DNA from: a bacterium
GTDB lineage: Bacteria > Babelota > Babeliae > Babelales > JABJEI01
NCBI GenBank assembly: GCA_018663245.1
Contig: JABJEI010000029.1
Coordinates: 12,821 to 76,820 of the forward strand
DNA length: 64,000 bases
Direction: 5' to 3'
The notes under the pieces are model-generated. The model saw only the letters and a list, made by a program, of their open reading frames with translations. It ran no database searches and had not been told where the DNA came from. Numbering within the stretch: the stretch's first letter is position 1; the number at the start of each line of letters is the position of its first letter. A program made the position numbers and the translations under genes. Below, one piece after another: positions 6,442 through 63,177 of the stretch.

Positions 6442-6473
6442 GCCAAGCTTCAATGTCACGCAAAACAGACAAA

Positions 6474-6494
6474 GGGGGCTTTATGCCCCCTTTT
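6474..6494. terminator. Hairpin terminator between convergent genes
   Basis: gggggc (6474-6479) / gccccc (6485-6490), 5-nt loop, flanked by AAA on the left and TTTT on the right. Confidence 0.6.
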
Positions 6495-6504
6495 CACTAC
6501 TTAC

Positions 6505-7260
6505 CTAAAAATTACGAGCAATTATTTTTATGTTACGCGGACTAGGCAATAGCTTGAAGTCAAGAAGGCGCTCCTGCTCCTCAAGGTTGCCCAGTGTTTT
6601 TGTGTTAACAAAATTCTGAATGTAGTAGTTACCCTGATATCCGCACGACTCTAGATCAGCTATAATTGCCCGTATATCACGCTCGTTGAGAAGCGCAGTA
6701 TGAACCGTTGTTCTGATCTCACAAGCAAGGCCAGATTGGCACAAAAAAGACAACGTCTCATGAAACAATTCAAACCCATGCTTGCGACCAGTTACACGCT
6801 CAAAGTGACGCTCAGGGGCCTTGTAGTCCAGTGCGATAAAGTCTATCAACTCTAGCTCAATAAGTTCTTTAACAACCGACGGATTTATTCCATTGGTGTC
6901 TAGTTTTATTTTGAACCCAAGACGCTTTATATGGCATATAAGATCAATCAATCCCGGAAACATCGTGCACTCTCCGCCAGAGAACACAACACCGTCGAGA
7001 AACTTCTGTCTTGATTGTAAAAAAGCAAAAATCTCTCCAATCGGAACAATTGGACGATTGCGCAAAACAATGTCTGGATTATGGCAATACAAACAGCGCA
7101 TGTTGCATCCAGCAAACCACAAAATGCACGCCGTGTGATCAGGAAAATCCTGTAGCGTAAACGGCGTTAGTGCGCAAATTGGTGGTGGAGCTACTTGCTC
7201 ACGTACAGAAGCTTGATTCTCAAGCTTACTCTGTGAAGTGGACTCTTTCTCTATGCTCAC
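6505..7260 (-). CDS. nrdG: Anaerobic ribonucleoside-triphosphate reductase activating protein (radical SAM)
   Basis: CNMRCLYCHN (CxxxCxxC radical-SAM cluster), about 250 aa, immediately downstream of nrdD. The GTG start overlaps the nrdD stop by 35 nt. Confidence 0.85.
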   Translation of the reverse strand: MSIEKESTSQSKLENQASVREQVAPPPICALTPFTLQDFPDHTACILWFAGCNMRCLYCHNPDIVLRNRPIVPIGEIFAFLQSRQKFLDGVVFSGGECTMFPGLIDLICHIKRLGFKIKLDTNGINPSVVKELIELELIDFIALDYKAPERHFERVTGRKHGFELFHETLSFLCQSGLACEIRTTVHTALLNERDIRAIIADLESCGYQGNYYIQNFVNTKTLGNLEEQERLLDFKLLPSPRNIKIIARNF

Positions 7261-9136: not shown

Positions 9137-9511
9137 GGCTTATACCCCCTTAAATACAGTAGATTGATTACAATTCAGGTCAAAAAACCCGACTGAGACA
9201 AACCAGCCGGGACACTAATGCATTTTATATACGAATATTTACTCAGTCAATAGTTTTAATAAAAAACACAAATAGAGTGATATTGATTTTCTCCAAATCA
9301 ATAAGGTCCAACTTAAAACGAGCTAAATTTAGTTTGTCTTGTATATACAAAATGCCCTGCAAAAATGCACAGGTTTTCCATCTACATCTAAATTCTAACT
9401 GCATACTCACAACTATTTCACAGAAATTACACACAGCCCTTCACCTCTGCTGCTCATATTGGCTAAGCTGTGCCAAACAATTAAACGAACCCTGGATAGA
9501 AAGAGCAGTTC

Positions 9512-11131: not shown

Positions 11132-11132
11132 A

Positions 11133-12728: not shown

Positions 12729-12748
12729 AATAATCTTTTAGCCAAAGC

Positions 12749-14929: not shown

Positions 14930-15101
14930 GAACTTACGGAACCTTCAAAGTCTTCATCTTAACAGAAGAGACTTACCAAAAGATACCACACATCCCAACC
15001 TTGGCAAGGAGGTCATAAAAAGATAGCATCCATTGCATACCTAACCTCCCACTCAGTACCGTAAATACACACATTAATAAATTGAATAAGAGGATAACAA
15101 T

Positions 15102-16364
15102 ATGAAAAAATTAATACTCATTAGCCTGTTTCTAGCAGCTACCGCAGCATATACCCGCATCCCAAAAGGTCTAGACGGCGGAAGTAACCGCTGCTACTTC
15201 AACGCAACTCTTCAGTCACTGTGCAATATCGAGCAACTTTCAGATTACTTTATTAACAATACTGGAATCGTAAATAAATCCATAAACTTATATAAAGACA
15301 ATGACAATAAAAACAAGATCGTTAGTTCCAAAACAATAGTCACAGAGTTTGCCACAGCTTTAAGCCGAATGCGCAAGGCAACCAAGTCAATAACAATTTC
15401 CAACAAATTTTACCGCAATATTCAAGACAATTTCATTTTCCCCAAATTACGCAGAACTGATATCCGAGCCTACGACAAACAGCGAGATGCTACAGGATTC
15501 ACATCAGGCCTACTCGCAACCCTGGGAAATAACGTTAAAAGCTGCACAGCCTATCAACCACCAGGCTACACAGGAGTCGATGGCCCATGCAACATCGTAC
15601 CTGGTAAACTTTTTGCTTTTTCAGAAATTTACACAAAAATAGCAGCCGAAGATAAAACTGGAGACAAAGCGTACAAAAAAGATGACATACTTTCTATAAA
15701 AAACGACTACTCTGATAAGCTAAGCTTACCTATACCAAAACAAAACAAACCAAATCGTCTCACAGAATTACTTAACAACTATCATCAAGAACCCAACGAA
15801 ACAGACTTCACAATAAGTTACAGAAGTGATGGAAACCCAATTTACATAAAAGCCAAAACATTCATCACCCTGCAAAGCACGCCAGAAATTTTACAGTTAA
15901 TGTTCAAGCGACAAATTTACGCTAAAGACGGAACAATAACCAAAGACAATGCCAAAATCAGCTTCCCACAAGAGCTAGATCTTTCCGACTTCCCGCTGAC
16001 AGATAAAAACACAATCGGAAACAGAAACTACCAACTAATCGCCATTATCGCCCAGTCGGGCAGCATTACTGGTGGACACTACATCGCCTACACTCGTGAC
16101 GTTACCCAAACAAACAAAAATAAGCAGTGGTACAAGTGTGATGATTCTATAATCACACAACTCAATAACAAAAAAGCCCAAAAAGTTTTTGCCGGTGAGC
16201 ACGAAGGAGATTTCACTCCATATCTACTTTTTTACCAACGCCAAGATTCATTTAATGAGGCGTCGCAAATGGCAGGAGAAATTCCTGACATTTCCAAAGA
16301 CTTAACCAAGCTTAACGCACAGCTGGCAATCATCAAAAATGCAATCGACCAACAAGGAAGTTAA
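15102..16364 (+). CDS. Secreted ubiquitin-specific protease (USP/UCH, peptidase C19)-like protein
   Basis: Signal peptide, then Cys box GGSNRCYFNATLQSL, His box GSITGGHYIAYTRD and WYKCDDS. This is the eukaryotic USP core arrangement. Confidence 0.75.
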   Translation: MKKLILISLFLAATAAYTRIPKGLDGGSNRCYFNATLQSLCNIEQLSDYFINNTGIVNKSINLYKDNDNKNKIVSSKTIVTEFATALSRMRKATKSITISNKFYRNIQDNFIFPKLRRTDIRAYDKQRDATGFTSGLLATLGNNVKSCTAYQPPGYTGVDGPCNIVPGKLFAFSEIYTKIAAEDKTGDKAYKKDDILSIKNDYSDKLSLPIPKQNKPNRLTELLNNYHQEPNETDFTISYRSDGNPIYIKAKTFITLQSTPEILQLMFKRQIYAKDGTITKDNAKISFPQELDLSDFPLTDKNTIGNRNYQLIAIIAQSGSITGGHYIAYTRDVTQTNKNKQWYKCDDSIITQLNNKKAQKVFAGEHEGDFTPYLLFYQRQDSFNEASQMAGEIPDISKDLTKLNAQLAIIKNAIDQQGS

Positions 16365-25911: not shown

Positions 25912-26316
25912 TGGTGGAGGCGATGGGAATCGAACCCATGTCCGCACTAACTTAGATACACAGCCCTACATGCTTAGTCTTTAATTAATACGTGCAATAC
26001 CTCTGTAAAGACACAGAGTATATACTGCACGTCAGCTTCGTATACACAACCAGGTTACGCAGCTAAAAAACCTTGCCTGGTGCGACCTATCTAAAAGTTA
26101 CACGTAAACAGTGCGGATAGATGCACCTCTGTTTACGCGTAAACCCGAATAATGCGGGTCTACTGCAAAGGTTAGCTTACGCTTTTACGCGAGAGCAACC
26201 CCCACAGGTTGAGACTGATTGCCAGTTCAAAAATGAATGCTTGTTTTACGAGCACACATACAACGCTCGGCATGCTCCGTACACCCTTGCCAACACGTCG
26301 AAGCCAGTACGCCCCC
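25912..26316 (-). ncRNA. ssrA: tmRNA (SsrA)
   Basis: The minus strand starts GGGGGCGUACUGGCUUCGACG and ends GGGUUCGAUUCCCAUCGCCUCCACCA. The acceptor stem GGGGGCG/CGCCUCC includes the G3:U pair. The candidate tag frame at 26223..26185 encodes GNQSQPVGVALA then stop. smpB lies adjacent. Confidence 0.9.
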
Positions 26317-26465: not shown

Positions 26466-26924
26466 TCAGTCACGTGTAACATTTTTGAGGTCACGCTTAG
26501 TCTCGCGGTCAATATCACGATCTTTGAGCAGTTGGCGCTTGTCATGCTTTTTGCGAGCCTTACAAAGCCCGATTTCCACCTTGACCAGACTTTTTTTGTT
26601 GAAGTACATTTTAAGCGGGACGATAGTAATACCACGACGAGCAACTGCCATTGTCAGTTGATTTATCTGCTTACGACTCAGCAGCAACTTTCTGCGCCTG
26701 TCTCCAGAGTCGTTAGTCTTGTCATACGCAAACTGGTAGGGGACAATGATAACGTTAACCATAAACAGCTCACCCTCACGCTCGTGAGCAAAGGCTCCGC
26801 TCATCGATACGTTCCCAGAGCGCAAAGACTTAACCTCGTCACCGGTAAGCACAAGGCCTGCCTCAATAGTTTCCAAAATCTGGTAATCAAAAAAAGCTTT
26901 TTTGTTCTTGGCAATTATCTTCAT
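26466..26924 (-). CDS. smpB: SsrA-binding protein SmpB
   Basis: IAKNKKAFFDYQILETIEAGLVLTGDEVKSLR and a C-terminal basic tail; adjacent to ssrA. Confidence 0.95.
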   Translation of the reverse strand: MKIIAKNKKAFFDYQILETIEAGLVLTGDEVKSLRSGNVSMSGAFAHEREGELFMVNVIIVPYQFAYDKTNDSGDRRRKLLLSRKQINQLTMAVARRGITIVPLKMYFNKKSLVKVEIGLCKARKKHDKRQLLKDRDIDRETKRDLKNVTRD

Positions 26925-46446: not shown

Positions 46447-49255
46447 AAACTATCAATACACCCTAATTCTTGTGGTAATGATCGGCTGGTCTCTGCAAAT
46501 AAAGGCCATGCAACAATCATCATCAAGCAGTAGCTCGTCAACATCTACCACTCAAAAGGCCATCATGCCTACAGTGCAAAAAGTTACTGTTATTGAACAA
46601 GCCTCAAACATGCGTCGACTGATCATGCTATTCGATTTTAACTTTAACTCTTCTATTGTTCCAAAATCAGACGCTATGAGCACCGCTTTAGCAACAGCAC
46701 TAGCACAAAAATCTGCCCCTATTTTAGTTAGCAAGCAACTAATTTATAATTTTTATCGTGATATCTCATACTATCAAGCTGCACTTGACTCTTTTCTATC
46801 AAAAGACATAGATTACAGCCCCCCTAATTCGGACGTTTTTGGCAACTATTTTATGGCCACAGGGTTAACCGCCCAACACAAGGTTTCACAGCTTATAAAT
46901 CAACACGGCAAAGATGTAGCTATTACCTACATCTTCAACAAGCTTGACCAGGCACTTGAACTCCTTGGCGGCAATTCATTAATAGCCCAACAAGCAACAC
47001 AAAGTATCGAAAGCAATTCTACACAAATACAACCTGGAGAATGGAACATTTACACCGTTGATAATCTTTTTTATCTACTTGTTCCCAAAAGCTATGTGCA
47101 AGCTATTCTATCCCCCAATCAAACACCTACAAGTGCCACCTTAACAGACATACAAACAAACCAACCCTTCACACGCCGAGAACAAAAGTTAGGCCTGAAG
47201 GTCGACAAACTCACGGCTCACTCAAACTTAAATACTCTAAGCAGTATTCAACAGTTCTTTTTGTCAGTTAATAAACTTAAAACATCTCAAAGTCACAAAC
47301 ATTTTATGCAAAATAAAAATGAGATCACACAACTGCTCAGTAAAGTCCTTATCAGCAAGCTTGACGCTCCACAACAGAAAGAAAGCCCTGTATTCAATAT
47401 TTACCTTGCTGGCCACGGCCGCAATTCTAAAGACATATCTGACATAGCAATACAACAAAAGATTTTAGCAAATCTTACTAATGAAAAAATAAAAACGGCT
47501 GAAGAGCAAGATGCGAAATCCGCTCTTGAGGATATTTTTGAAAATAAAATCAAACAAACAATTACCAGCGCCTCTGGCACCATTGCATCACTGCCTGTAA
47601 CAACGCACTTTGCACAGCTTCTTGACCAATTAAACTACCCATATAACACCAATTCATTAACATATCTCTCATGCTTTGCTGGTGGAAGTAATCGTCAATT
47701 GTCCGTTTATGACATTATCAAAAACATCCTTAAAATATATAATTACACAATGACATGTAGCTCCGCCACAGCAACAACTTCATCAATAAATGACATTCGA
47801 TTTATGCCATCCATTGCTATAACAAGCAGCGGTATTCCTGTCTTCAGTGTAAATATAATTTTTCCACAAAAGCTCACAAAATTCTTTAACGAGCTCGAAC
47901 AACAAGCCACCCATAAAACAGCTACACAATATTCAACAAATAAGCAATTAACCGGAAACGTAAAAAACCCAGCTAAAGTTACCAGTTGGTCAGACATCCT
48001 GAACAATGTTATTCAATTCAAAGATCCTGAAACAGGAAAAATCAACAGTTTGAGTAACATCCCCCTGATTCGCCCTCGCAACACAAATAAATGGTTTTCA
48101 ATAAGTTCATCAGGTAAAAAAGAAATTTTAGAACTTACCCCTACCCGCATGACCGCTTTCGAAAATGAAAAAACACTCAACGCCGACAACTATGCCACCC
48201 TGCTTCTAAGCGCCAACCATGTTCCGATAACTATAAAGATGACCCAACTTATTCCAATAATTTCAAAATCAGCTGGCAACTCTAGTCACGTCATAAAACA
48301 ATTAGATGCCCCCACACTTGGCATTGATGAATTGGCTGCAAAAGTATTTTTACCAATAAGAGATCTCGATGATGCAAAGCTCTTCTTTATAAAACAACTT
48401 GAAGTCAAAAATTCTGGTGAACTCAAAAATAGTTTAAAGACAACAGGAAGAAGCGTAATTCTAAAAAACGTACTATTTTTGAACAATTCAGTAAATCCAC
48501 TTAAATTTAGTACAAGCAACCCTAAGAAAAAACATGGAATAATATTCAAATATGGCAATAAGTATTACAAAAACATATATTCAACTGACGAAATATATAT
48601 AGACTTAAGCTTCGCATCTATTGGCTCGAAAAGTTACAATCAATACGAAGATTTTTATCTCGACAGCATTGACTTTACCGCCCACGGCCCAACGTCACCA
48701 CACTGGAACAGCCCGGGCAAAGTCCCTCGTTCAATAAATAAATTTGGCAAAAAAATAGCCGAAAAAACAAAAGTGTCAAAAAATAAAAAGATGCCAAAAG
48801 TACCCCGCATTTTTAACACCCCATCTCCAGTAAAAAGATCTAGAAAAGAGTACAAAACAGGCGATTATGCAACAAAAGCTAAAATGAAACGAATCGAATC
48901 TAAAGAACAAACCGCTAGATTTGCGAATATGTCTAAAGAAGAACGGGCTATATTTGCGAAGAAAATTAAAGCACGACACGCCCAACGTGCAAAGAAAGCT
49001 AAAAGAAAGCGGACCCTATTTGCAACCCCAACCAAACCAACATCGGCGACGCCTACATCACCATCGTCAACCAGCCAGTCGTTCAAAGAACACGAAAGTC
49101 CGTTCAAGCGCCCTCGACGAAAGGCGCCTAAGCCTCCATCAACACAATTAAACACCTCATTCAATGATAATGACCAAAACATTATAGATGAACAAACGCA
49201 ATTCAATACCTCGTTCGATAACGACGACCAAGATCATGGGATGCCCGATGCGTAA
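46439..49255 (+). CDS. Giant secreted protein, paralog C
   Basis: The start ATG is embedded in ATGCGTAA, overlapping the stop of B by 8 nt. Signal MRKNYQYTLILVVMIGWSLQIKA. FNIYLAGHG (His codon 47414-47416) and LTYLSCFAGG (Cys codon 47672-47674). The tail contains TPSPVKRSRKEYK and KKAKRKRTLF. Confidence 0.85.
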   Translation: MRKNYQYTLILVVMIGWSLQIKAMQQSSSSSSSSTSTTQKAIMPTVQKVTVIEQASNMRRLIMLFDFNFNSSIVPKSDAMSTALATALAQKSAPILVSKQLIYNFYRDISYYQAALDSFLSKDIDYSPPNSDVFGNYFMATGLTAQHKVSQLINQHGKDVAITYIFNKLDQALELLGGNSLIAQQATQSIESNSTQIQPGEWNIYTVDNLFYLLVPKSYVQAILSPNQTPTSATLTDIQTNQPFTRREQKLGLKVDKLTAHSNLNTLSSIQQFFLSVNKLKTSQSHKHFMQNKNEITQLLSKVLISKLDAPQQKESPVFNIYLAGHGRNSKDISDIAIQQKILANLTNEKIKTAEEQDAKSALEDIFENKIKQTITSASGTIASLPVTTHFAQLLDQLNYPYNTNSLTYLSCFAGGSNRQLSVYDIIKNILKIYNYTMTCSSATATTSSINDIRFMPSIAITSSGIPVFSVNIIFPQKLTKFFNELEQQATHKTATQYSTNKQLTGNVKNPAKVTSWSDILNNVIQFKDPETGKINSLSNIPLIRPRNTNKWFSISSSGKKEILELTPTRMTAFENEKTLNADNYATLLLSANHVPITIKMTQLIPIISKSAGNSSHVIKQLDAPTLGIDELAAKVFLPIRDLDDAKLFFIKQLEVKNSGELKNSLKTTGRSVILKNVLFLNNSVNPLKFSTSNPKKKHGIIFKYGNKYYKNIYSTDEIYIDLSFASIGSKSYNQYEDFYLDSIDFTAHGPTSPHWNSPGKVPRSINKFGKKIAEKTKVSKNKKMPKVPRIFNTPSPVKRSRKEYKTGDYATKAKMKRIESKEQTARFANMSKEERAIFAKKIKARHAQRAKKAKRKRTLFATPTKPTSATPTSPSSTSQSFKEHESPFKRPRRKAPKPPSTQLNTSFNDNDQNIIDEQTQFNTSFDNDDQDHGMPDA

Positions 49256-51026
49256 AAACTATCAATCCACCCTAATTTTTGTAGCAATGATTAGCTTGTC
49301 GTTACAAACAATGGCAATGCAGAAATTCACATCGAGCAATAACGCCTCATCATCTAAACAGGCGACCAACACAAAAAGCTCAAAAGCTAAATACTGGGGA
49401 AAGTCCGGTTCAATAACTACTGGTTACAAAATTAGTCACGACGCAGACATGCGCCGATTAATTATTCTTATTAATGACGAAGTGATGACTGACTATCAAG
49501 ATTCGGATGCAATACTATACGAACTAATCAATGCAATATCTGATAAAAGCGCACCAATCCTTATCAAGGGTCTATTTGACTCTTTTATAGTTAATAAAAG
49601 CAACCTGGTAGAGCTAAAAAAACAAAGGCCGCTACACCAACTCCCCATTCATATATGGAATATGTACCTGTCTGGTCATGGAGACCAAGATCCATACGAT
49701 CACTACAAGCGCCACGCAATGGAACTGTTAACAAAAGCTAACTACTTACAAAAAGACGAAAAAAACAAGTTGCTCTCAGGCTCAAAGATAATGTCTAGGC
49801 CTGTAACAGAATTTAGCAAAAAGCATGTAAAGGCCAAATCCTACGCAGCAATGGCGGGCCTTCCCCTATACACACATTTTACCCCACTATTGAACTATCT
49901 TAATAACAACATCAAAACAAACTTTCTTATGTACAACAGCTGCTTCTCTGGTGGAACTTCTCGCATTACCAATTTTTATGACTTTGAGCTCAATAAATTT
50001 AAACGCTATAACTATACAATCGCTACCGGAACCACAACCCCTACCCCTTCCCTCACCTCAAGCCCAAGAATATATGTAAAGGAAGCAAGCCAAAGCTTTT
50101 ATACAATCACTAGTCAAAAATTTTATCCTTTCTTCAAAAGCCTAGAGGCAAGTTATTACCCACTTGCAAACAATACAATTCAGCCCGACACCCAACGCCA
50201 ACCTACGCCACTATCGTGGAGCCAAATTATAGAAAACATTCATAAGCATAAAACGAACCTTTATAACCTTCCTTTAGTTCGGCCCAAAAACACAATAACC
50301 TGGTTTTTTGCTGGCAAGAGTGGTGGCCCGATACTTGAGCTAACGCCAACCAAAGTTAATATTTGGCAGAAAGAACAACCTGTTCTAGACATCAGCTCTT
50401 ATCGCGCGGTTTTGCTTGGATCGCGCTACATCCCACTCACACTCAAGTTATCCTGTCCGGTCGCCCTAATACAGCAGACAGCACTGCAACAAACCTACAT
50501 CAAAGAAATTTATGCCCCCACAATTACACTCATGAAGCTTCTTGATACAACAATTTTCCCACTCAAAGAAATGGCCCAATCAAGCACACTCTTAATCGAT
50601 AAATTAACCGTAAAAAGCAGCTCTATGTTTGCCAAAATACCAATATTAAGGAGCAAAACCTCTACCCTGAAAAACTTAATATTCTCAATTTCTACACAAA
50701 CACCATTCGATGAACGACAGCAATGGCACATAGATTTTACTGTAAACAACGTCCACCACAGCATCCAGGGAGATGCTACAAAAAAAGGTTTCAACAGGGA
50801 CAAACAGTCATGCATAAAGCCTATAGAAAAGTATTTACCAAAGTTTAAAAAACAAAAAAAAGAGATACACGAACATGCAAAATTGTTGGGTGAAGCAAAT
50901 CTAATTGATGTTTCCACAATCTCCAAAGTTTTGGATGAAAAGCCAGACTCTCTTTCAAAAACTCCACGCATAGTTAGCGACTCTCTAAAAAAATACGCAA
51001 TAAAACAGAAGTTAGAAAAAGCTTGA
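49248..51026 (+). CDS. Secreted protein, paralog D (shorter and more divergent)
   Basis: The start sits in a second ATGCGTAA overlap with the stop of C. Signal MRKNYQSTLIFVAMISLSLQTMA. WNMYLSGHG (His codon 49677-49679) and FLMYNSCFSGG (Cys codon 49941-49943). It lacks the NLS-like tail. Confidence 0.8.
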   Translation: MRKNYQSTLIFVAMISLSLQTMAMQKFTSSNNASSSKQATNTKSSKAKYWGKSGSITTGYKISHDADMRRLIILINDEVMTDYQDSDAILYELINAISDKSAPILIKGLFDSFIVNKSNLVELKKQRPLHQLPIHIWNMYLSGHGDQDPYDHYKRHAMELLTKANYLQKDEKNKLLSGSKIMSRPVTEFSKKHVKAKSYAAMAGLPLYTHFTPLLNYLNNNIKTNFLMYNSCFSGGTSRITNFYDFELNKFKRYNYTIATGTTTPTPSLTSSPRIYVKEASQSFYTITSQKFYPFFKSLEASYYPLANNTIQPDTQRQPTPLSWSQIIENIHKHKTNLYNLPLVRPKNTITWFFAGKSGGPILELTPTKVNIWQKEQPVLDISSYRAVLLGSRYIPLTLKLSCPVALIQQTALQQTYIKEIYAPTITLMKLLDTTIFPLKEMAQSSTLLIDKLTVKSSSMFAKIPILRSKTSTLKNLIFSISTQTPFDERQQWHIDFTVNNVHHSIQGDATKKGFNRDKQSCIKPIEKYLPKFKKQKKEIHEHAKLLGEANLIDVSTISKVLDEKPDSLSKTPRIVSDSLKKYAIKQKLEKA

Positions 51027-51088: not shown

Positions 51089-53047
51089 ATGTTCATTATT
51101 GTGCGCCTCCTTAACGGATTCTCGCGACCTCTTACCTACAAAGTGCCAGCCAATTGGCCAAGGCATAGCCTGATGGGCTCCATAATCCGCGTACCGCTAC
51201 AAAAGCGGGAAGAAAAAGCAATTGTCGAACGAGTATTGCCATCACTTGCCTACAAGCCCGCCTATGCCATTCGTGAAGCGATCTGCCTTGAAACTGTACC
51301 AGAAGACAAATACTTTATGCCGTTCATCAAGCAAGTTGCCGGCTACTATCAAGTAAATCACGTAGCCCTCCTACGGCGGGTTAATTCATTCCTAGATGCA
51401 CCTAAAAAAAAGGCCGACCTGCCCATTCCGGCAGAAGTAGGCAGTTCTGCTCATGTTGAACTAACGCAAGAACAACAAGAAATTTACAAGGCAATTGAGC
51501 CATCCGTTGTACAAGGACAGTACGCACCTTCAGTAATTCACGGTGTAACCAGCTCTGGAAAAACAGAAGTTTATAAAAAATTAATCGAGCTCAGCATTGC
51601 GCAGGGCAAAAGCGTGGTATTCATGGTGCCCGAGGTAACACTTGCAGTACGCTTCACCAGTATTTTGAAGCAACAACTTTCTGCAACTATCCAGATATTT
51701 TCGTTCCATAGTTCCACCGGACCAAAAGAGAAACGTGAACTGTGGCAACACCTACTCGCCGACACTCCCGTACTCATCATTGGAGTACACCTACCAATCA
51801 TGCTCCCACTGCCAAACCTTGGCTGTATAATTATCGACGAAGAGCACGAAAGCGGATATCAAGAAAAACGACACCCTCGTCTGAACAGTCGCGAGCTGGC
51901 AATTATGCGAGCGCAACAAACAAGCATTCCAATCATACTAGGTTCAGCAACACCTTCGAGCAACAGCCTACACAACGTAAAACACAGAGGCTGGAAGCTG
52001 TACTCATTACGCAAACGGTTTTCGGGAGAGTTCCCAAAAATAAAAACGGTCATCCTTGTCAAAGATGCCCGCAGAGAATCGTTCTGGATAAGCACAGTAC
52101 TCAAGCAAGAGCTTCGCAAAACTCTTGCCCAGGGTAAGCAGGCCATTATCTTTTTAAATCGACGTGGGCGATATTTCTTTGCTCTATGCAAGCAGTGTGG
52201 ATTTGTCCCCTCATGCACGCAGTGTTCAGTTAGCCTAACCGTTCACGAGAAAGAACGATTAATCTGTCATTACTGCGCAAAGAGCGAGCTATTGCCGGCC
52301 AGCTGCACGTCCTGTGGCTACAAGAAAAACCCCTATCAAACCAAAGGAATTGGCACGCAACAGGTCGTCAATATCCTCAAAGACATGTTCCCTAAAGCCA
52401 ATGTTGAACGAGCAGATCTTGATACCACAACCAACAAGAAGAGGTGGAGCTGTACGCTCGAGAGTATGCTTGATGGGTCTATCGACATTTTGGTTGGCAC
52501 TCAAACAATCACAAAGGGATACCACTTCCCTAACGTAACGCTTGTTGGCATAATCTGGGGCGATTTGAACCTACACTTCCCATTTTACAACACCACCGAG
52601 AAAACACTGCAACAACTTATTCAAGTTGCTGGACGCGCAGGTAGAACAACAAAACACAGCACTGTAGTTGTGCAAACCATGGCCAAACATCAGCTATTTG
52701 AGCACATTAATGAGCACGATTATGATCTGTGCATGCAGAATGAACTTGAACAACGAGCAATGTCAGGTTACCCCCCATCACGGCGACTTACAGAAATTGA
52801 ACTGCGCAATAAAGATGAAGTAAAATTAGAATTTGAGGCAAGCGCCATCGCAGATCAACTGCGCCGAGGAACAACGTTCACTGTATTGGGCCCAGCCCAA
52901 CCACCAGTTTCCAAAATACAAAATGTACACAGCAGAAAAATTTATATAAAAAGCGACACAATGCAAAGAGTAATCAGCGCATACCAGGCCCTTGAAAAAG
53001 ACAACATCACATCGTCTATCTTCTTTACACCTAATCCGCAAAACTAA
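51089..53047 (+). CDS. priA: Primosomal replication-restart helicase PriA
   Basis: Walker A GVTSSGKTEVY, DExH box IIIDEEHE, and a Cys-rich Zn-binding insert CKQCG..CTQC..CHYC..CTSCG. Confidence 0.93.
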   Translation: MFIIVRLLNGFSRPLTYKVPANWPRHSLMGSIIRVPLQKREEKAIVERVLPSLAYKPAYAIREAICLETVPEDKYFMPFIKQVAGYYQVNHVALLRRVNSFLDAPKKKADLPIPAEVGSSAHVELTQEQQEIYKAIEPSVVQGQYAPSVIHGVTSSGKTEVYKKLIELSIAQGKSVVFMVPEVTLAVRFTSILKQQLSATIQIFSFHSSTGPKEKRELWQHLLADTPVLIIGVHLPIMLPLPNLGCIIIDEEHESGYQEKRHPRLNSRELAIMRAQQTSIPIILGSATPSSNSLHNVKHRGWKLYSLRKRFSGEFPKIKTVILVKDARRESFWISTVLKQELRKTLAQGKQAIIFLNRRGRYFFALCKQCGFVPSCTQCSVSLTVHEKERLICHYCAKSELLPASCTSCGYKKNPYQTKGIGTQQVVNILKDMFPKANVERADLDTTTNKKRWSCTLESMLDGSIDILVGTQTITKGYHFPNVTLVGIIWGDLNLHFPFYNTTEKTLQQLIQVAGRAGRTTKHSTVVVQTMAKHQLFEHINEHDYDLCMQNELEQRAMSGYPPSRRLTEIELRNKDEVKLEFEASAIADQLRRGTTFTVLGPAQPPVSKIQNVHSRKIYIKSDTMQRVISAYQALEKDNITSSIFFTPNPQN

Positions 53048-53070
53048 TAAATAAAAAAGGGGGGAGAAAA

Positions 53071-53112
53071 AGATCAAGCGCCCTGGCTTAGGAGCGCTTA
53101 ATTTGATCTTTT
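53071..53112 (+). terminator. Possible priA terminator
   Basis: aagcgc (53076-53081) / gcgctt (53094-53099), extended by agatc/gatct with a bulge, then TTTT. The stem is imperfect. Confidence 0.35.
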
Positions 53113-53594
53113 AGAGCAGTGTGTATAACCATACTACCCGAGAAGGAGTCCGTTTGTGGACATGACCCATTAAGAGAATGAATCATGAAGCCGTAAACTA
53201 TTTTCGCCCAAAAAAAGAAAAAAAACAAAAGCAACAACACAGCCATACAAAACGCAACAACAAAAGCCCCACTTAAAGGCAACTTTCCCCTCTTGCGCCA
53301 CTTTTATATAAAAAATATAGCAAAACGCAACAGAAAAAATCGCCTAAAAAACATCAAAAAAATGCAATACGAACGCAAAAAATTTTTAGCAAAAACTAAA
53401 CTGGTCTATCCGGATACGTTTCACAAATCATTCCGTAACTCTTTTGCACTTCGGCTTGGCGCCTACTTCAACTGCAAAACCATACCAAAGGTAGCCTTAA
53501 TAAGATTTTGTTATTCAAAAAAAGAGACGCTAATTGTAAGCTAGGATACATGTATCAAGCCATCTAAGATTAATTAACAGGATTAACGCAAAAA

Positions 53595-54466
53595 ATGAAA
53601 AATATATTACTCGCCATAGGTATGCTCACAACATTCTTTGTACAAGCACAACCAATAGATAACTAGGTATGCTCACAACATTCTTTGTACAAGCACAACC
53701 AATAGATAACGCGGCAAAAGAAAAATTGTTCCCCGCAAAACCATTGATCCATGATGCAGTACAAGTTGGCAAACTTAACCTAATCAAGCAGCTAGTAATA
53801 AAAGATAAAAGGTCTGTAAATGCAAAGAATAGCACACTGTGGACACCTCTTCACATTGCGGCCAACATGGGAAGAACAGGCATCGTGCAATTTTTAATCA
53901 CAAACGGAGCCGATGTTAACGCCCAATGTAGCTTAGGTGGGACACCATTTCACTATGCCAACAATGTGAGTATCTCAAAAATTTTAGTAACAAACGGAGC
54001 CGATTTTTGCATCACAGATAAAATTGAATCGAAAGGTCCGTACCAGATTCATAACAAAGAAATAATTAAATTTTATAGATCATTAAGCCGACTAAATTTA
54101 TTATATAAACGCACGACCCCCAAAAAATACTTTTTCAACAAGTACATAAACGGGAGGCCAAAACAAAGCACTGAAAATCTCTTCATTTTAAATCTATTAT
54201 TTAAAGAATATAAAACAAGCAAAAGCCTGATCACTACCTTCACCGAGGAAGACTTCCGCTTCATCTGGGATAAAGATTGGGACCGAGACGAAGCAAAGCC
54301 CCTATCACAAGGACTAAATACATTGTATCGCCTTGCTAAAGAAAATAATTCTAAAACTTGCGTAAAAGATCTTTTAGATTGCAGCATAAAATTAAGAGTG
54401 TTGTCTGGACTAGGAAATGGAAATTCGGGCCTTTGCGTTATTCAACTTATTCAAAGTTATGAATAA
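53595..54466 (+). pseudogene. Ankyrin-repeat protein gene with its signal-peptide region interrupted by a 47-bp tandem duplication
   Basis: The ATG at 53595 encodes MKNILLAIGMLTTFFVQAQPIDN and then hits a TAG (53664-53666) created at the duplication junction. The remaining ORF, 53669..54466, restarts at the internal Met (MLTTFFVQAQPIDNAAKEK..) and carries ANK repeats (TPLHIAANMGRTGIVQFLITNGADVN, GGTPFHYA...LVTNGADF). Confidence 0.75.
53617..53710 (+). repeat. Perfect 47-bp tandem duplication (2 copies)
   Basis: taggtatgctcacaacattctttgtacaagcacaaccaatagataac occurs at 53617-53663 and again at 53664-53710 with 100 percent identity. Confidence 0.97.
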
Positions 54467-54487: not shown

Positions 54488-56518
54488 TTAAGCTTGGTCT
54501 TCTGGTACTTCTTGGAAGCACTCAGCCGTATCATCAACCTGCCAGTCAGTATGACCAACAACCAGGAATGCACACTCAAAGCCAGCCAAAACTCGTTTAG
54601 CTGATTTGCGCTCTTTCTGAAGGCTGCTGATTATACCCTGGCCAATCTCTTTGCCGCGACGGTAAATAGTAATCTGTCCGCCATCAAGCAGGAATCCAGA
54701 ATTTACCTTACCACCAGCAACAATACCAACGCGCTTTATATCAAACACCTTGAGCACAGAGAAATCACCAATTTTTTTCGAGATCATTTTGATCTCTTTA
54801 CCTTGCTCAAGTAGTTTTTCGACATCTTCGATAAGCTTGTAAATAATCGTGAACAAGCGAATATCAACACCTTCACGAGTCGCCAGTTGAACAGCATTAG
54901 GCTCTACTTTTGAATGTAGGCCATAAATAATTGCCCCTGAACTTACCGCAAGCGTAACATCGCTTTCTGTAACAGAACCGACACCATCCAAAATGATATT
55001 AATCTTCTGATCAAAAGACAGGCTTACCTTGTCCAGAGAGCCACGAACTGCTTCTCTTGAAGACTGGGTGTCAGACTTTACGATAACGTTTAGCAGATTC
55101 GAACCTGGTTGCAATAGCAAGCGTCGCGGAACTGGCGCACTGCCACGTTGTCGCAATTTTTTGAACTCTGAAGCAGAAATAACATTAAAGCTATCACCCG
55201 GCTTTGGAAGATCTTGGAATCCGGCAATTCTGGCCGGTTGTGACGGTTGCACTTGTGTAACACGTTTTCCGTACGAATCAACAAGAGAGTTAACTCGACC
55301 AAACGTCCTACCAGCCGCAAAATAGTCACCAATTTTAAGGATACCGTTTTGACAAATAACAGTCGCAACAGGACCTCGACCTCGTTCAAGCTTTGATTCT
55401 AAAACATAGCCTTGAGGAGCTACTGACAAATCTGCTTTTAATTCAAGCATTTCTGCTTGTAGCGCAACTATTTCTAGAAGATTGTCTACGCCATCACCCT
55501 TGAGGGCAGAGACGGGAACCGTTGATATTTGACCACCCCAAGCTTCAGGCAACAGATCATTCTGTGCAAGCTCAGAGTAAATAGCTTCAACTCGCTTAGG
55601 ATCAGCTTTATCCATCTTGTTGATAGCAACAATCATTGGAATTTTAGCTGCACGAGCGTGGTTAATTGCTTCAACAGTTTGAGGCATAATGCCATCATCA
55701 GCTGCTACCATCAAAATAGCTATATCAGCGACGCGAGCACCCCGCATACGAATGGCAGAAAATGCCTCGTGGCCGGGCGTATCAAGGAAAATAAGGTTGC
55801 CGTGATCTGTAGTTACTTCGTAAGCACCAAGATGCTGTGTTATACCGCCAGCTTCTCGCTGAACAACTCGCGTATTGCGAATATAATCCAAAAGAGTTGT
55901 CTTGCCATGGTCAACATGGCCCATAACAACAATAACCGGAAGTCTTATTTGAGCATTTTTTGAGGCTGCAGTTTTTTTAATTGTTTTGCTTTGGTCGCTG
56001 TCCTGCTTTTCTGCATAAGTAGCTTTTAACTCAAAGTCCTCTGCCAATTGAAGAACCTGCTTTTCATCAAGCGGATGGTTCATCGTGCAGGCAAGGCCTT
56101 TGCGAATAAGCGTCAAAATAATTTGGTTAACAGGAAGACCAGAGCGCTGAGCAAATTGCCCGACGGTCATAGGCTCAACAACAATAACATTGCCTGCAAC
56201 TGCCTTTAAAACTTTGTTTAAACGACGTTTTTGCGGATCAATGTCAAGTTTGTCATCATCTTCGACTTTACCAGGAACCTGCTCATTGATAGCGCTCAAC
56301 TCAGGCTTTTCCTGCTTGCCAGAAGGCTGGCTAGGAGAAGCTTTGGATGCTTGCTGTGAAGACTTTTGTCCAACACCAAGCAACACTTCAAGTTGGGCTA
56401 TCTTATCATCAGGAATAACTGACATATGATTGGCAACATCAACATTTTGCCCTTTTAGGGCATCGATGACCTGCTTACTAGTCAAATCATAAATTTTTGC
56501 GAACTCATATACGCGCAT
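54488..56518 (-). CDS. infB: Translation initiation factor IF-2
   Basis: N-terminal IF2_N ([21 protein letters not shown]) and G domain [27 protein letters not shown]. Confidence 0.97.
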
Positions 56519-56573: not shown

Positions 56574-57683
56574 TTACTCTTCCCCCGAATCCATATCTTT
56601 TTCGTCATCATTCAGGCCAATGTCCTCTTCGGACAGTATAGCTTCTGCATGCTGACGATCAACATCGCCGTCTCGAACAAGATGAATCTTATGTCCAACA
56701 AGTTCTGAGGCCAGTCCAATGTTTTTACCCATCTTACCGATTGCAATTGAATGTTGCTCTTCATCGACCCAAACATTAATGTTCTGGTCATCAACAATCT
56801 CAACACGCTCAACGTGCGCAGGCTTCATCGCCCCACGAACGAGAACTTCCAAAGATTCTGACCACGAAATAACATCAACACGCTCATCACCTAATTCTTT
56901 GAGGATAGGCTTGATACGCGACCCATGAACACCAACACAGGTGCCTACAGGGTCAATGTTATCATCGTTTGAAGCAACAAGTACTTTTGATTTGTAGCCT
57001 GGAGACCGAACGATTTTTTTAATTTCGACGATTCTCTCATAAACTTCTGGTATTTCCAGCTCAAACAATAACTCTAGGAATCTAGGCGAAACACGGTCAA
57101 GAATCAACTGATTCTCGCTTACCGGCTCCTCAAGAACCTCTTTTAGCAAGGCGCGAACAGTATAACCTGCAACACAACGCTCACCAGCAGGAGTCAAAGA
57201 CTTGGGCAGGAATGCAAAGGTGTCGTTAACCACAATCGTAACACCGCTACGCTCACACTTGTGAACAACGCCGTTAATGATTGTGCCTTCTTTTTCTTTG
57301 AATTCTTTGTAAACCGCAGCAGCTTCAACCGCTCGGATTTCTTGTGATATAATTTGCTTGGCTCGTAAAATCTCAATGCGGCCAATTGTTCCTTCAAACG
57401 GAACATTGATGATATCACCAATTTGGGCATCTTTTTTGAATTCACGGGCTTTACGAAGATTCATTTGAATCAGGCTGTCTTCAACCGCAGAAACGGTCTC
57501 TTTATCGACAAACACATCAATATCGTCTGTTTTTTTGTTGTAAGCAGCCGTTAGAGGTATTTCTGGATAGCGTTTGCTATACGCTCCAAGCATACCCTGG
57601 CATATAATATCGGCAACGACGGATCGGTCTAAGCCGCGATCCTGAACAAGTTCGTCTATGACTTGAAAAAGCTTCAACCGCAT
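56574..57683 (-). CDS. nusA: Transcription termination/antitermination factor NusA
   Basis: N-terminal domain, S1 and KH domains (GxxG: IGKMGKNI). Canonical position upstream of infB. Confidence 0.95.
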   Translation of the reverse strand: MRLKLFQVIDELVQDRGLDRSVVADIICQGMLGAYSKRYPEIPLTAAYNKKTDDIDVFVDKETVSAVEDSLIQMNLRKAREFKKDAQIGDIINVPFEGTIGRIEILRAKQIISQEIRAVEAAAVYKEFKEKEGTIINGVVHKCERSGVTIVVNDTFAFLPKSLTPAGERCVAGYTVRALLKEVLEEPVSENQLILDRVSPRFLELLFELEIPEVYERIVEIKKIVRSPGYKSKVLVASNDDNIDPVGTCVGVHGSRIKPILKELGDERVDVISWSESLEVLVRGAMKPAHVERVEIVDDQNINVWVDEEQHSIAIGKMGKNIGLASELVGHKIHLVRDGDVDRQHAEAILSEEDIGLNDDEKDMDSGEE

Positions 57684-57875: not shown

Positions 57876-58181
57876 GGTGGATAACTCACTACCCTAATCA
57901 CAAAAGATCCCATGTATCCACAATTTAAGTTTTTTTAGGTGGTGGATAACTTGGTGGATAACTTGGTGGATAACTCAAGGCCGAATGTGGATAACTTATT
58001 ATCACCTATCGGATAGCCCCTGTAGGAGCACAAAACCAGTGTCGCACTCTGTGTCGCTTTTCGTTATCAGCCTGTCAGAGCAGCTATTGAGGGGGGTCTG
58101 TTTTTCAAAATGCCGAGTTATCCACATTCACCTATGAGTTATCCACCACTTATCCACCACTTATCCACCAAGTTATCCACC
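57876..58181. promoter_or_regulatory. Cluster of 11 DnaA boxes in two inverted arrays: candidate oriC (or another DnaA-binding locus)
   Basis: Boxes in TGTGGATAA orientation: 57876-57884, 57941-57949, 57953-57961, 57965-57973 (all gGTGGATAA) and 57986-57994 (perfect). Boxes in TTATCCACA orientation: 57914-57922 (gTATCCACA), 58118-58126 (perfect), and 58139-58147, 58150-58158, 58161-58169, 58173-58181 (all TTATCCACc). Spacing within the arrays is 11-12 bp. An AT-rich tract at about 57815-57860 contains TAAGTAGTAGTAA. Confidence 0.7.
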
Positions 58182-58205: not shown

Positions 58206-58784
58206 TTATGAATTCTTTGACAGGTCGAAAGCCTGTTTTAGGTCGAGGATCCACATATCGCGCATTTTAGAGTTGCGCAAGATGTATGCTGGGTGGAACA
58301 CTGGCTTAACGCTCAGGCCGTTTTTGTTGATGATTTTTTTTCGTGCGTCGGTCATTCGTATAAGTTTTTCTTCAAGAATCACTTTTGTGGCACAGCTGCC
58401 AAGGGAGCAGATCACTTTTGGCTGTATAATATCCAGCTCGCGCTTTAAGATAAGCTTTGTGCAGGGACTGATTTCGCCTTTGTTTGGGAGTCGATTGTTT
58501 GGCGGCCTGCATTTAACCACATTTGTTATGTAATAATCTTCTGGCTTTAAGCCTATTTTAGCAATTGTTTTGCGTAGTAGTTGACCAGATCGGCCTATGA
58601 ATGGGCGTCCAACTTTATCTTCTTCCCGGCCAGGGCCTTCACCCAAAAATAAAAGTGGCGCGTTTGGGTTGCCTTCTCCAAAAACAACTTGCTGGCGACC
58701 AAGGCTGGCTAGTGGGCAATGTTTGCAGGCTTTATAGAGATTGTGTAGGGCTTCAAGCTGTTCATTTTTGTTGGTGTTTGTCAT
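58206..58784 (-). CDS. Family 4 uracil-DNA glycosylase
   Basis: [36 protein letters not shown], and the C-terminal HPAYILR motif. Confidence 0.88.
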
Positions 58785-58856: not shown

Positions 58857-60296
58857 TTATCGAGACAAGATGTAGGTCATGATCATTTTAAGCCAATTCA
58901 TCTCTATAGCAGGTTCATTTTTCCTGTAGGATGGGTGCAATCGTGATGGAAGATATATAGAAATGCCGCGAGCACGTCTTAGATTGTGTCCTGCAACGTT
59001 GGCTGTAACTATTTTAAGGATTAACTCTTTACCGGCTTTTAGTTGTTTTGTAAGTTCGGCCACGATGGTTTTTTGCAATGTTATGTCATGCAGTCGTATG
59101 GTATGTAGCCGTTTTTCAAGGTTTTGATAAAAATCGTATAAATCGATGTAGGTTGGTTCGTCGAAGCAGGTGCAGTGGCGTGGAGACTTGCAGTAGGTGA
59201 TCATCTTGCGCACGCTTTTGCTTGATTGGTTGTCGATTGCCTCTATTAAGAGCATGGCAACTGAGCTAATATTGTCTTCGAGTTCTCCAAAGTGCTCTAG
59301 ATCAAGGGCTGCGAGTGTGTAGTCGTTGGTTATTTTACCGTATGACTGCTCGTAAGCGTAGACCATGTGCTTTGCTAGCTCTTCAGGTGTTGTTTCTGCT
59401 TGAGCTAGTGGAAGTAGTACACGTGCATAGTTGAAGCCAGTGCCAAGTTCAACCTCTTGAGAGGCGACCATGTATTTTGCGTGTTTGCTTGCTATTGAGC
59501 CGATTTCGGCCATAGACATTAAGCAGGCGTCAAACGATAAAATATCGAGTTTTTCATTGTTTAGGCACTTTTCTTGTATAGTTGCCAAGGCATAACCCAG
59601 CCCTTTGTTGTCGATGTAGTTACCTGTGCTTTGGTCAAAGCAAATGCCGCGTGTTTGTGGTTTTGCATCTAAAACTACATTTTTGTCCGGGGCAGCTGAA
59701 CTCTCAACAAAGTCCATAAAACTAATGGATCGATCTAGTTCGATTAGGTCTCGCTGCTTGTTGTAGGTAAAAAGGTGTGAAGGATTAATTGCTCGTGCAA
59801 TCATTGGGTCGATAGCGCCTGTTCCGTGGTTCCACATAATGACTGCGTAGTGCTGGGCTGGGAAGCGTTTAATGCTCCAGTCGCAAAAATCAACAAGTGT
59901 ATCAGGATCTCCGCTGTCCATGGCCTGTTCGGGGCTGAACAGAAGCTCTCGAGAGTGGTGTTGTATTTTGTATCGCTGTGTTACCTTGCCACGACCGTAT
60001 CGGTTAGTGTCTAGCTGAACAATTATATTTAAGTTTTCGTTTGAGCCGATTGCCTCCATCTGCTTCATATTACGTCCAGCAAAGCTAAACAGGTCGTTAT
60101 CTGCCGAGATGTAAATCATGACCGTCCAGTTGGCAATTTTTTGCTCTTGCGCTGGTTGTTTGCTTGATAATACTGCTTGTAGATCTACCTGATCTTGAGC
60201 GTTTTGTGTGAGAATGACTGGGTTTTGTTGTTGTGCTTGGATATTGAATAGCGCTGTGCACAACAGCGCCATCGATAGGCAATGTGCCTGCTTCAT
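58857..60296 (-). CDS. Secreted clostripain-family (C11) cysteine peptidase
   Basis: Signal peptide, WTVMIYISADNDL, catalytic His VIMWNHGTG, catalytic Cys ILSFDACLMS. Confidence 0.8.
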   Translation of the reverse strand: MKQAHCLSMALLCTALFNIQAQQQNPVILTQNAQDQVDLQAVLSSKQPAQEQKIANWTVMIYISADNDLFSFAGRNMKQMEAIGSNENLNIIVQLDTNRYGRGKVTQRYKIQHHSRELLFSPEQAMDSGDPDTLVDFCDWSIKRFPAQHYAVIMWNHGTGAIDPMIARAINPSHLFTYNKQRDLIELDRSISFMDFVESSAAPDKNVVLDAKPQTRGICFDQSTGNYIDNKGLGYALATIQEKCLNNEKLDILSFDACLMSMAEIGSIASKHAKYMVASQEVELGTGFNYARVLLPLAQAETTPEELAKHMVYAYEQSYGKITNDYTLAALDLEHFGELEDNISSVAMLLIEAIDNQSSKSVRKMITYCKSPRHCTCFDEPTYIDLYDFYQNLEKRLHTIRLHDITLQKTIVAELTKQLKAGKELILKIVTANVAGHNLRRARGISIYLPSRLHPSYRKNEPAIEMNWLKMIMTYILSR

Positions 60297-61506: not shown

Positions 61507-63177
61507 TTATATGTTGTGGCCTAAGTCTTGCCAGTGCAAATCAAGCTCATCTACTGTTGCTTTATTAAGTTCATTGAGCTGATTTTTTTCATGATCGGCA
61601 AGTATTTTTAGAAGGGCCAGTTTTTTACTTTTGTTTATTCTAGAGTCAATCAAATCTTGGGGAGACTTTTCGTCCTCGTTTGCGATCGAAAGACTTGCTC
61701 CGTTTTGAATTAAAAACTTGATAATCTCTAGTCTTTTGGCCCAGTCTTTGTTACCTGATAGCGCATGATGAAGTGCCGTATCACCGTAACGGTCTTGCAT
61801 GTTAAAATCAGCGCGTCTATCGGCCAAGAGTTTGAGGCTGTCTAGGTCCAAATTTTTGGTAGCAAGGTGTGTAAGGCTATCTTTATCTTTTTTGGAGTAA
61901 CCGAATTGCTGATCTACGTTTTTAACGTATGGGATTACATGCTTTAGCATTCCCTTTGAGGTTATTACATCTATTAGTTGGCCGTATTTTCCTACATTTA
62001 ACTTAAGAATGTCGTCTTCATTTTTGATAAGTTCGATAAGTTTTTTTGTGTTGCCTTCGTAAATGGCCTTTAAGTGCGGTGAAGGGTAGCTGTACAAAGG
62101 CTCGCGTCTGTCGCTTTTTAAGATTGGCTCCCACCTTACGATGGTCTTTTTCCAACCAGGATAGTTTTTGATTAGCCATTGGAATAGCGATACGTCTCCA
62201 TAAAACGAGTCGCCTGGTTTTGTGTCCCAATATCCGCTGACGGGTAAGTTGATTTCTTGTGTTCTGAACGTCCGATAGCCTTTAAGTTTTTTAAATGTAG
62301 CGATAGGATGTGATACGGTATTTGCAAGTTTAAGATCCAGGGTGCTTGCGTACTCCATTGGCAGATTGAGGCTTGCATCGTCTGGTCTTCTGAGTAGAAA
62401 TTCGTATGGCAAGCGATTGTCTCCCCATGCGCCTATTAAAAATGGAGCCTTAGTGTTTAGAAGGAAGTCGATTATTGCCCTATTCCCTTCTATTCGATAC
62501 AAGTCATCTGCGCTAACGTTATCATCAATTACTGCGAAGTATTGCATTAGCATTAGGCCGCTTTTTGGGCGAAGTAGATTGTAGGCTTGTGCAAAAGTAC
62601 CAACGGGGTCATTGAGGTGAATAAAGCAATATTGTGAAACAATAAGGTCAAATTGTGGATTTTCTTCAAAATTGTCAGGGTCTTGTTTATAAAGAAACCG
62701 TCCTAAGCTTAAGTCCAGATCTTCAACTTTAAAATTGGCAATATTATATTTTTTACAGATCCCAGCTTCTTCTATTTCTGTCACGTACTTCTCTCCAACT
62801 ACACTTACAATATTGACGGTAATATCGCTAGGTAGCTCACCCTTATCTGCAAGCTCGTTCAGCTTTTCAAATAAAGTATTTCCCCACTGGAAGTGCCCTG
62901 CGCCCAAGTCGAGGATATAGAAAATCTTTTGATTTTTTGGTGCGGTCTTAATAATTGTTTTTGCAAGGTCGGTAGTATTGATTTGCATGATGCTGTAAGA
63001 CGATTGGCCGTCAAAGTTCCAACGACTGAATTTGCCTAGAGATTCAAAGTTATCATTAATAGAGAATTGTAAATTGTCGGGTCTATTTTTTGGGTTAAGT
63101 TTAGCGAGTGCACTTGAGGTAACTAGTGCAAGGGCAAGTAAGCAGGCTACTTTGAGCTGTTTGATCAATTTATTCAT
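61507..63177 (-). CDS. Secreted class I SAM-methyltransferase-like domain fused to C-terminal ankyrin repeats
   Basis: Signal peptide LLALALVTSSALA. Motif I YILDLGAGHFQWG, FDLIVSQYCFIHL, LLRPKSGLML. The C-terminal ANK reads YGDTALHHALSGN...IKFLIQNGASLSIANEDEKSPQDL. Confidence 0.65.
   Translation of the reverse strand: MNKLIKQLKVACLLALALVTSSALAKLNPKNRPDNLQFSINDNFESLGKFSRWNFDGQSSYSIMQINTTDLAKTIIKTAPKNQKIFYILDLGAGHFQWGNTLFEKLNELADKGELPSDITVNIVSVVGEKYVTEIEEAGICKKYNIANFKVEDLDLSLGRFLYKQDPDNFEENPQFDLIVSQYCFIHLNDPVGTFAQAYNLLRPKSGLMLMQYFAVIDDNVSADDLYRIEGNRAIIDFLLNTKAPFLIGAWGDNRLPYEFLLRRPDDASLNLPMEYASTLDLKLANTVSHPIATFKKLKGYRTFRTQEINLPVSGYWDTKPGDSFYGDVSLFQWLIKNYPGWKKTIVRWEPILKSDRREPLYSYPSPHLKAIYEGNTKKLIELIKNEDDILKLNVGKYGQLIDVITSKGMLKHVIPYVKNVDQQFGYSKKDKDSLTHLATKNLDLDSLKLLADRRADFNMQDRYGDTALHHALSGNKDWAKRLEIIKFLIQNGASLSIANEDEKSPQDLIDSRINKSKKLALLKILADHEKNQLNELNKATVDELDLHWQDLGHNI

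Follow-up and report, generated by a model that had tools for sequence, protein, structure and literature searches.

Simple-sequence repeat (SSR) contingency loci are tracts in which a short unit of 1-7 bp is repeated many times; they slip at high rates in both directions and show many length states. The CTCTT pentamer tract of Neisseria opa is such a locus and lies in a signal-peptide coding region. In the Streptococcus pneumoniae capsule genes cap3A, cap8E and tts, reversible intragenic tandem duplications have been described (Waite et al. 2001, 2003, cited in PMC4243769). Copy-number variation of promoter repeats in Mycobacterium tuberculosis modulates promoter strength, is polyphyletic and has a frequency of 10^-2 to 10^-3 per chromosome in subpopulations, and short-read assemblies under-report such differences (PMC12817950). 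The Dependentiae isolate Chromulinavorax encodes 98 ankyrin-repeat (ANK) proteins, 78% of them with signal peptides (PMC6561590). In E. coli gene pairs, termination-reinitiation needed no more of the upstream gene than its last 15 nt, and a 2-nt gap between stop and start cut it by only 5-70% (PMC10666635).

The 64-kb stretch of DNA analysed here (the window) carries a 47-bp unit twice in tandem at 53617-53710, in the 5' region of an ANK gene (Table 1). Tandem Repeats Finder reports a period of 47, 2.0 copies, 100% matches and no indels, and a pattern search allowing 3 mismatches returned exactly 2 matches to the 47-mer in the window, versus 0 in 100 shuffles. The site reads ATG(53595) AAA AAT ATA TTA CTC GCC A/TAGGTATGCTCACAACATTCTTTGTACAAGCACAACCAATAGATAAC/TAGGTATGC...GATAAC/GCGGCAAAA, with slashes at the unit boundaries. 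Copy 1 is preceded by A, whereas the unit ends in C, and copy 2 is followed by G, whereas the unit begins with T; the flanking bases therefore do not extend the repeat, and the boundaries are unambiguous. Reading of the sequence found no microhomology at either end-point. The 5' region of the gene contains no simple-sequence repeat, and a 47-bp unit in exactly 2.0 copies lies outside what we took to define SSR contingency loci (a hypermutable tract of short units of 1-9 bp, several copies). We also considered a transposon footprint or target-site duplication and rejected it, as the copies directly abut with nothing between them. To our knowledge, the lengths of known target-site duplications fall far short of 47 bp.

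Table 1 Features of the window discussed in the text.
Feature	Positions	Strand	Remarks
AGGA, weak Shine-Dalgarno-like motif	53579..53582	+	12 nt upstream of the original start
Truncated 23-codon ORF, MKNILLAIGMLTTFFVQAQPIDN	53595..53666	+	Ends at the duplication-made TAG, 53664-53666
47-bp unit, copy 1	53617..53663	+	
47-bp unit, copy 2	53664..53710	+	Missing in the 1-copy alleles L010/L108 and L011
TAG-GT-ATG, mini-ORF stop and restart codon, gap 2 nt	53664..53671	+	Sequence read
ANK-body ORF, 265 aa, begins MLTTFFVQAQP	53669..54466	+	ORF list; undisrupted in every strain examined
Ankyrin repeats, about 3 copies	53747..54019	+	Pfam Ank_2 / Ank
Orphan C-terminal half, 145 aa, predicted helical	54029..54463	+	
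Second perfect tandem duplication, 30 bp x 2, in frame	45866-45925		In the 973-aa ORF 43525-46446
Patatin/PLA2_B phospholipases	4513-6441, 9512-11131, 11133-12728		
Anaerobic ribonucleotide reductase NrdD and activase	6505-9136		
UCH-type ubiquitin hydrolase	15102-16364		
tmRNA gene	25912-26316	-	Rfam RF00023, 143.5 bits; adjoins smpB (26466-26924)
Bax-inhibitor homologue	35452-36180		
C11 peptidase	58857-60296		
ANK + methyltransferase protein	61507-63177		

As 47 is not divisible by 3, the duplication shifts the frame, and the first ORF runs for only 23 codons before it meets the junction TAG. It encodes the predicted signal peptide plus five residues (MKNILLAIGMLTTFFVQA/QPIDN). The ANK frame is closed upstream by an in-frame TAA at 53660-53662, and the first start codon after it is the ATG at 53669. 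When one 47-bp copy is removed, a single ORF of 274 aa results. A preliminary description of this DNA had claimed a perfect 47-bp tandem duplication, a junction TAG in frame with the ATG at 53595 that leaves a 23-codon mini-ORF, and a restart of the ANK body at an internal Met without the charged n-region. All three were borne out: the first by the sequence read, Tandem Repeats Finder and the pattern search, the second by the ORF list, and the third by the ORF list and inspection of the N-terminus.

The 274-aa form matches Pfam Ank_2 with 59.8 bits (cut-off 27.3, E=3.8e-16, residues 36-126) and Ank with 58.8 bits (cut-off 21.1, E=3.7e-16), and no Pfam domain besides ankyrin repeats was found in it. 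Searched among 1.84 billion representative proteins, the C-terminal 145 aa returned only the protein itself as a relative. The whole protein, searched against 5.8 billion proteins, gave best matches outside the clone that span the ANK repeats only, at 44% identity or less; neither search found an orthologue beyond the same clone. A single-sequence AlphaFold model of the protein had a pLDDT of 35.6 and was unusable.

The ANK gene follows priA (51089-53047) and is convergent with infB (54488-56518), beyond which lie nusA and the UDG gene. The three nearest Babeliales/TM6 metagenome-assembled genomes (MAGs) keep the UDG-nusA-infB order and have no ANK or priA gene beyond infB, so the ANK gene is lineage-specific. 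The protein resembles the ANK effectors of the Dependentiae Chromulinavorax destructans and Babela massiliensis (PMC6561590) in its predicted N-terminal Sec signal peptide and in coming from a genome rich in eukaryote-like genes. It is unlike them in being an orphan outside the ANK repeats; the searches gave no orthologue, and none lies at the syntenic position of the nearest Dependentiae MAGs. The spacer between priA and the ANK gene (53048-53594) is unusually long, at 547 bp, and A-rich. It has no Rfam match, and promoter matches there were no better than in shuffles, as was the case for our promoter and terminator scans generally. An uncalled, lysine-rich ORF of 83 codons with a TTG start (53293-53544) also lies in this spacer.

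A natural allele with a single copy exists. The 90% cluster of the ANK protein includes P0013, a 274-aa protein identical to the reconstructed intact protein, which is encoded on a 95-kb MEGAHIT contig from assembly ERZ27250255 (L010). Compared with window positions 43595-64000, this contig has one 47-bp copy and is otherwise 100% identical (0 differences over 20.4 kb), and its single copy was re-confirmed through a locus found by an infB-keyed look-up (L108). The expectation that deleting one copy would restore an uninterrupted ORF is thus realized in a natural allele. The earlier suggestion that the duplication is very recent also holds up: its copies do not differ from each other, and contigs of the two alleles have no other difference over 20.4 kb. 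A second 1-copy contig, of 2.8 kb, comes from ERZ27237593 (L011). Here the gene caller started at the internal Met, giving a product of 265 aa. This contig carries a T-to-G change inside the unit (window 53638/53685) that replaces Phe15 by Cys in the signal-peptide h-region and is found in neither unit of the 2-copy allele, and it has two further mismatches near the contig end. The T-to-G change either marks a distinct 1-copy lineage or is a low-coverage error.

The 2-copy allele is far more common. Its exact 265-aa product is encoded on at least 20 contigs, and we scored the allele at every locus with DNA over the duplication site. Two copies were present in L001-L009, L109, L110 and L112-L116, which come from at least 13 assemblies (some of these may share sequencing runs, which makes the number of independent samples uncertain), versus one copy in 2 assemblies. 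They include the SPAdes-style ENA assemblies ERZ4200990, ERZ4201008, ERZ4201010 and ERZ4201011, the MEGAHIT assemblies ERZ27250210 and ERZ27250217, and five NCBI MAGs; a JGI contig for which DNA is absent has the gene spacing of the 2-copy form. Look-ups keyed on the neighbouring genes infB and priA, which are unbiased by the ANK product, found one copy at 1 of 6 infB-keyed places and at 0 of the 4 priA-keyed loci that reach the site. Among about 16 contigs, we found only the 1-copy and 2-copy states: no 3-copy allele and no recurrent independent duplication of another length or position, but one duplication with fixed end-points. An exact, allele-neutral 29-mer boundary pattern had no match in the metagenome and genome contig collections that we scanned, so the locus of this organism is absent from those two collections.

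The preliminary description had allowed for an assembly error, which is ruled out by the occurrence of two copies in at least 13 assemblies made by three assembler types, together with the break signature of Logan contigs. Two Logan k=31 contigs (SRR3725726) end at 53646 and start at 53681, respectively, exactly 30 nt (k-1) inside the unit from either side, and unit-unit junction k-mers must therefore be present in the reads. With an identical 2-copy sequence from SPAdes-style, MEGAHIT and MAG pipelines, and with Logan unitigs that break k-1 nt into the unit on both sides, it is extremely improbable that an assembly or sequencing artefact of any kind made the duplication.

The opposite artefact needs to be weighed as well, namely that the gene is a plain pseudogene, fixed in the population, and that the 1-copy contigs are assembler collapses of the repeat. 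It is true that both 1-copy contigs were assembled by MEGAHIT (k141) within a single accession series, that one of them is short and of low quality with extra mismatches, and that the 2-copy allele heavily predominates. The larger k values among the MEGAHIT defaults are 59-141. The unit, at 47 bp, is shorter than these, so a 1-copy contig requires k-mers that run from the left flanking A through one unit to the right flanking G, and only 1-copy reads can supply such k-mers. Both copies were resolved in two further MEGAHIT assemblies from this series (L008/L115 and L109), and the first 1-copy contig is 95 kb long. No strain has further decay in its 265-codon ORF, a point made weak by clonality. 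We consider a fixed pseudogene with collapsed 1-copy contigs unlikely.

The population is almost clonal. Primary alignments of 27 or more strain loci, drawn from ENA, NCBI, JGI and Logan assemblies of several samples, cover about 255 kb against window positions 5102-64000 and contain about 12 scattered SNPs, mostly in contigs of 2-4x coverage; the sequences are otherwise 100% identical. No indel besides the 47-bp one was found in these alignments, which makes it the only structural polymorphism found in the window. Every strain has the same, unbroken 265-codon ORF, and clonality leaves decay no time to appear. Gene calls of 612, 596, 592 and 579 aa for the upstream gene were considered as a possible polymorphism and rejected, as they are alternative starts (M1, M17, M21 and M34) on identical DNA.

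A second perfect tandem duplication in the window, of 30 bp and in frame, doubles the motif WTSPSKVPR(Y/S). It too has no flanking microhomology, and it is derived, since paralogues A and C carry the motif once. It was present in 4 of 4 strains checked, including the strain with a single 47-bp unit. The in-frame 30-bp duplication is thus fixed in these four strains and the frameshifting 47-bp one is not. This suggests that short tandem duplications are a normal class of mutation in this genome and are not specific to the ANK site. The ORF with the 30-bp duplication belongs to a set of four co-oriented tandem paralogues of 915, 973, 946 and 612 aa (40662-51026), which have signal-peptide-like N-termini and no Pfam match and appear to be a secreted orphan family. 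The first three share 58-65% protein and 74-80% nucleotide identity, the fourth about 30%, and the G+C content of the region (0.38) is below that of the rest of the window.

We took as the hallmarks of a Sec type I signal peptide a basic n-region, then 7-15 apolar residues as the h-region, with positions -3 and -1 taken by small or neutral residues. The full N-terminus, MKNILLAIGMLTTFFVQA/QP, has all of them, with K2, a 13-residue apolar run (ILLAIGMLTTFFV) and V-Q-A at -3 to -1. By inspection and hydropathy the segment looks like a canonical signal peptide, in line with the earlier reading of it as a complete one with a VQA cleavage site. Many proteins of the window start with similar predicted signal peptides (...NAQA/V, ...NIQA/QQ, ...SSALA/K), including the second ANK protein at 61507-63177. 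A Sec-dependent ANK effector would fit what is known of Dependentiae, given that 78% of the Chromulinavorax ANK proteins have signal peptides (PMC6561590). The restart product (MLTTFFVQAQP...) has no basic residue and an apolar run of only 7 residues, and it would very probably not be exported.

AGGA or GGAG stands 5-9 nt before the start in about half of the genes in the window, and the AGGA of the ANK gene is farther off. At the restart ATG (53669), an AGGT abuts the start codon and leaves no usable Shine-Dalgarno spacing, so independent initiation there should be poor. Coupled translation is another route: stop and start codons at a distance of about -8 to +10 nt on one transcript can support termination-reinitiation (PMC10666635), and the TAG-GT-ATG gap of 2 nt lies within this range. 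The locus is in this respect like natural termination-reinitiation gene pairs (PMC6728339, PMC10666635), with stop and start 2 nt apart on one mRNA and within -8 to +10 nt; it is unlike them in that its stop-restart arose by accident from the duplication, and reinitiation here is putative. The closeness of TAG and ATG, which the preliminary description had passed over, makes such a restart plausible, so that outright silencing of the gene need not follow. A search for RNA structure at the repeat was without signal (z=-0.02). On these grounds, the 2-copy allele probably amounts to a loss of secretion with reduced expression, and it need not be null.

The locus shares features with each of the variable systems described above. 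Like the pneumococcal capsule genes, it has a perfect duplication of tens of bp that disrupts an ORF, precise loss of one copy restores the wild type, and both forms are found in one clone; the coexistence of the 1-copy and 2-copy alleles in one clonal background corresponds to the situation in cap3A. In pneumococcus, many independent duplications of varied length and position are said to occur in the same gene, and switching frequencies have reportedly been measured. The ANK locus is unlike this in showing one duplication and two states, and in having its lesion in the signal-peptide region with a restartable ORF left behind. Like Neisseria opa, it has a repeat in the leader-coding region whose copy number sets the frame of the mature protein; unlike SSR contingency loci, its unit is 47 bp, present in 1 or 2 copies, and lacks microhomology. 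It resembles the M. tuberculosis promoter repeats (PMC12817950) in showing copy-number differences of tens of bp in otherwise isogenic populations and differs from them in being coding, frameshifting and known here as one event. A frameshifting intragenic tandem duplication that can be reverted by precise excision is a known kind of lesion. New here are the organism, the site within a signal-peptide region, where a stop-restart junction results, and the direct finding of both alleles against a background that does not otherwise vary.

The preliminary description had named a reversible on/off or localisation switch as one possibility. As an evolved device, this would mean that cells with one copy secrete the ANK effector and cells with two copies hold a signal-less, cytoplasmic or silent form, as bet-hedging in the interaction with a host. 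Several observations can be read this way: the two alleles lie on otherwise identical backgrounds, the copies match perfectly, so that excision brings back the exact ORF, no structural polymorphism other than the 47-bp indel turned up when strains were compared over about 255 kb, and the stop-restart geometry would keep the ANK body expressed. There is also precedent, in the reversible duplications of pneumococcal capsule genes (Waite 2001/2003, cited in PMC4243769) and in phase-variable tandem-repeat copy number in M. tuberculosis (PMC12817950). Set against this are the finding of two states only, with no 3-copy allele, and of a single duplication with fixed end-points. The unit is not a simple-sequence repeat, and without flanking microhomology it should seldom re-form identically. 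The other ANK gene with a signal peptide lacks a comparable repeat, the extra SNPs of the short 1-copy contig fit a retained ancestral lineage better than a revertant, and the in-frame 30-bp duplication elsewhere was simply fixed, which suggests ordinary mutations. We found no evidence for the proposed switch in these two states, the one inferred duplication and its lack of microhomology, and we consider an evolved device of this kind unlikely. We regard as quite unlikely the more specific model of a heritable, reversible localisation switch, in which 1-copy cells would secrete the protein via Sec, 2-copy cells would retain a reinitiated ANK protein in the cytoplasm or make little of it, and excision with occasional re-duplication would keep both cell types, as bet-hedging, in a clonal protist-associated population. 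Were it true, effector localisation would join the traits under duplication-based phase variation, and this in an intracellular bacterium from the environment.

In the literature on tandem-repeat deletion, two perfect repeats of 47 bp are well known to lose one copy often, and revertants are therefore to be expected; reversible capsule variation in pneumococci rests on such losses (Waite 2001/2003, cited in PMC4243769). The statement that tandem duplications of this size "collapse and re-form readily" stands for collapse and is weak for identical re-formation, which is not expected to be frequent given the lack of microhomology.

We think it probable that the locus carries an ordinary, recent and spontaneous 47-bp duplication, inherently revertible and not part of an evolved switch. 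The duplication would have arisen in the signal-peptide-coding 5' end of a Sec-exported, lineage-specific ANK gene, the direction of change being, we infer, from one copy to two. Ribosomes that stop at the junction TAG may reinitiate at the ATG 2 nt downstream, and the product would be the ANK protein minus its first nine residues, with export very probably lost and yield probably lower. Signal-peptide function, reinitiation and loss of export are all predicted here from the DNA. The 2-copy allele, which now prevails in the population, would then be hypomorphic or have lost secretion. The ancestral, intact 1-copy allele persists beside it or has come up anew: copy loss by slippage or recombination between the perfect repeats would restore the gene exactly.

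Two observations count against an ordinary mutation. The disrupted allele is dominant (at least 13 assemblies versus 2 with the intact form), which is unlike a deleterious mutation in a large population and calls for drift or hitch-hiking in a clone, or for an advantage; the dominance of two copies could reflect either of the former, or a selective advantage of not secreting the ANK protein. In addition, the identity of the 95-kb contig's background (0 differences over 20.4 kb) fits back-and-forth switching equally well. If the duplication is nevertheless an ordinary one, a natural loss-of-secretion allele has risen to the majority in an uncultivated protist-associated bacterium, and both alleles have been caught still segregating in an otherwise invariant genome. 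The orphan ANK effector would then be dispensable or counter-selected under the sampled conditions, and the 47-bp indel would provide a ready two-allele marker for this population in the public Saanich Inlet time series. The locus also calls for caution in annotation: gene callers give the 265-aa product as a normal ANK protein, and the lesion stays hidden.

An origin in the Saanich Inlet oxygen-minimum zone is given by contig names (LP_F_10_SI03_150, HAWL17-1_SAMN05224518; PMC10224968). The best matches of the IF-2 protein are in three Babeliales/TM6 (Dependentiae) MAGs, at only 44-45% identity, and these nearest three MAGs also share the UDG-nusA-infB synteny and the architecture of a spacer with DnaA boxes; the population is likely to be a Dependentiae/TM6-like bacterium. 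Effector-type or eukaryote-like genes with predicted signal peptides are dense at 4513-16364, 35452-36180, 58857-60296 and 61507-63177. Together with NrdD, the eukaryote-like gene content is consistent with a protist-associated anaerobe or microaerophile. Besides tmRNA, no Rfam family was detected in the window.

The spacer between nusA (56574-57683) and the UDG gene (58206-58784) is a probable replication origin (57877-58180). It holds 10 of the 12 DnaA-box-like TTATCCAC sites of the window, in two opposed arrays with 11-12 nt spacing, and GC skew flips at 56-60 kb, from about -0.1/-0.2 to +0.12. No dnaA gene adjoins this candidate origin in the window. The ANK gene is about 4 kb away and is transcribed towards it. 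The three nearest Dependentiae MAGs have the same two-array architecture between UDG and nusA (L012 4424-4600, L013 4255-4509 and L014 4456-4708).
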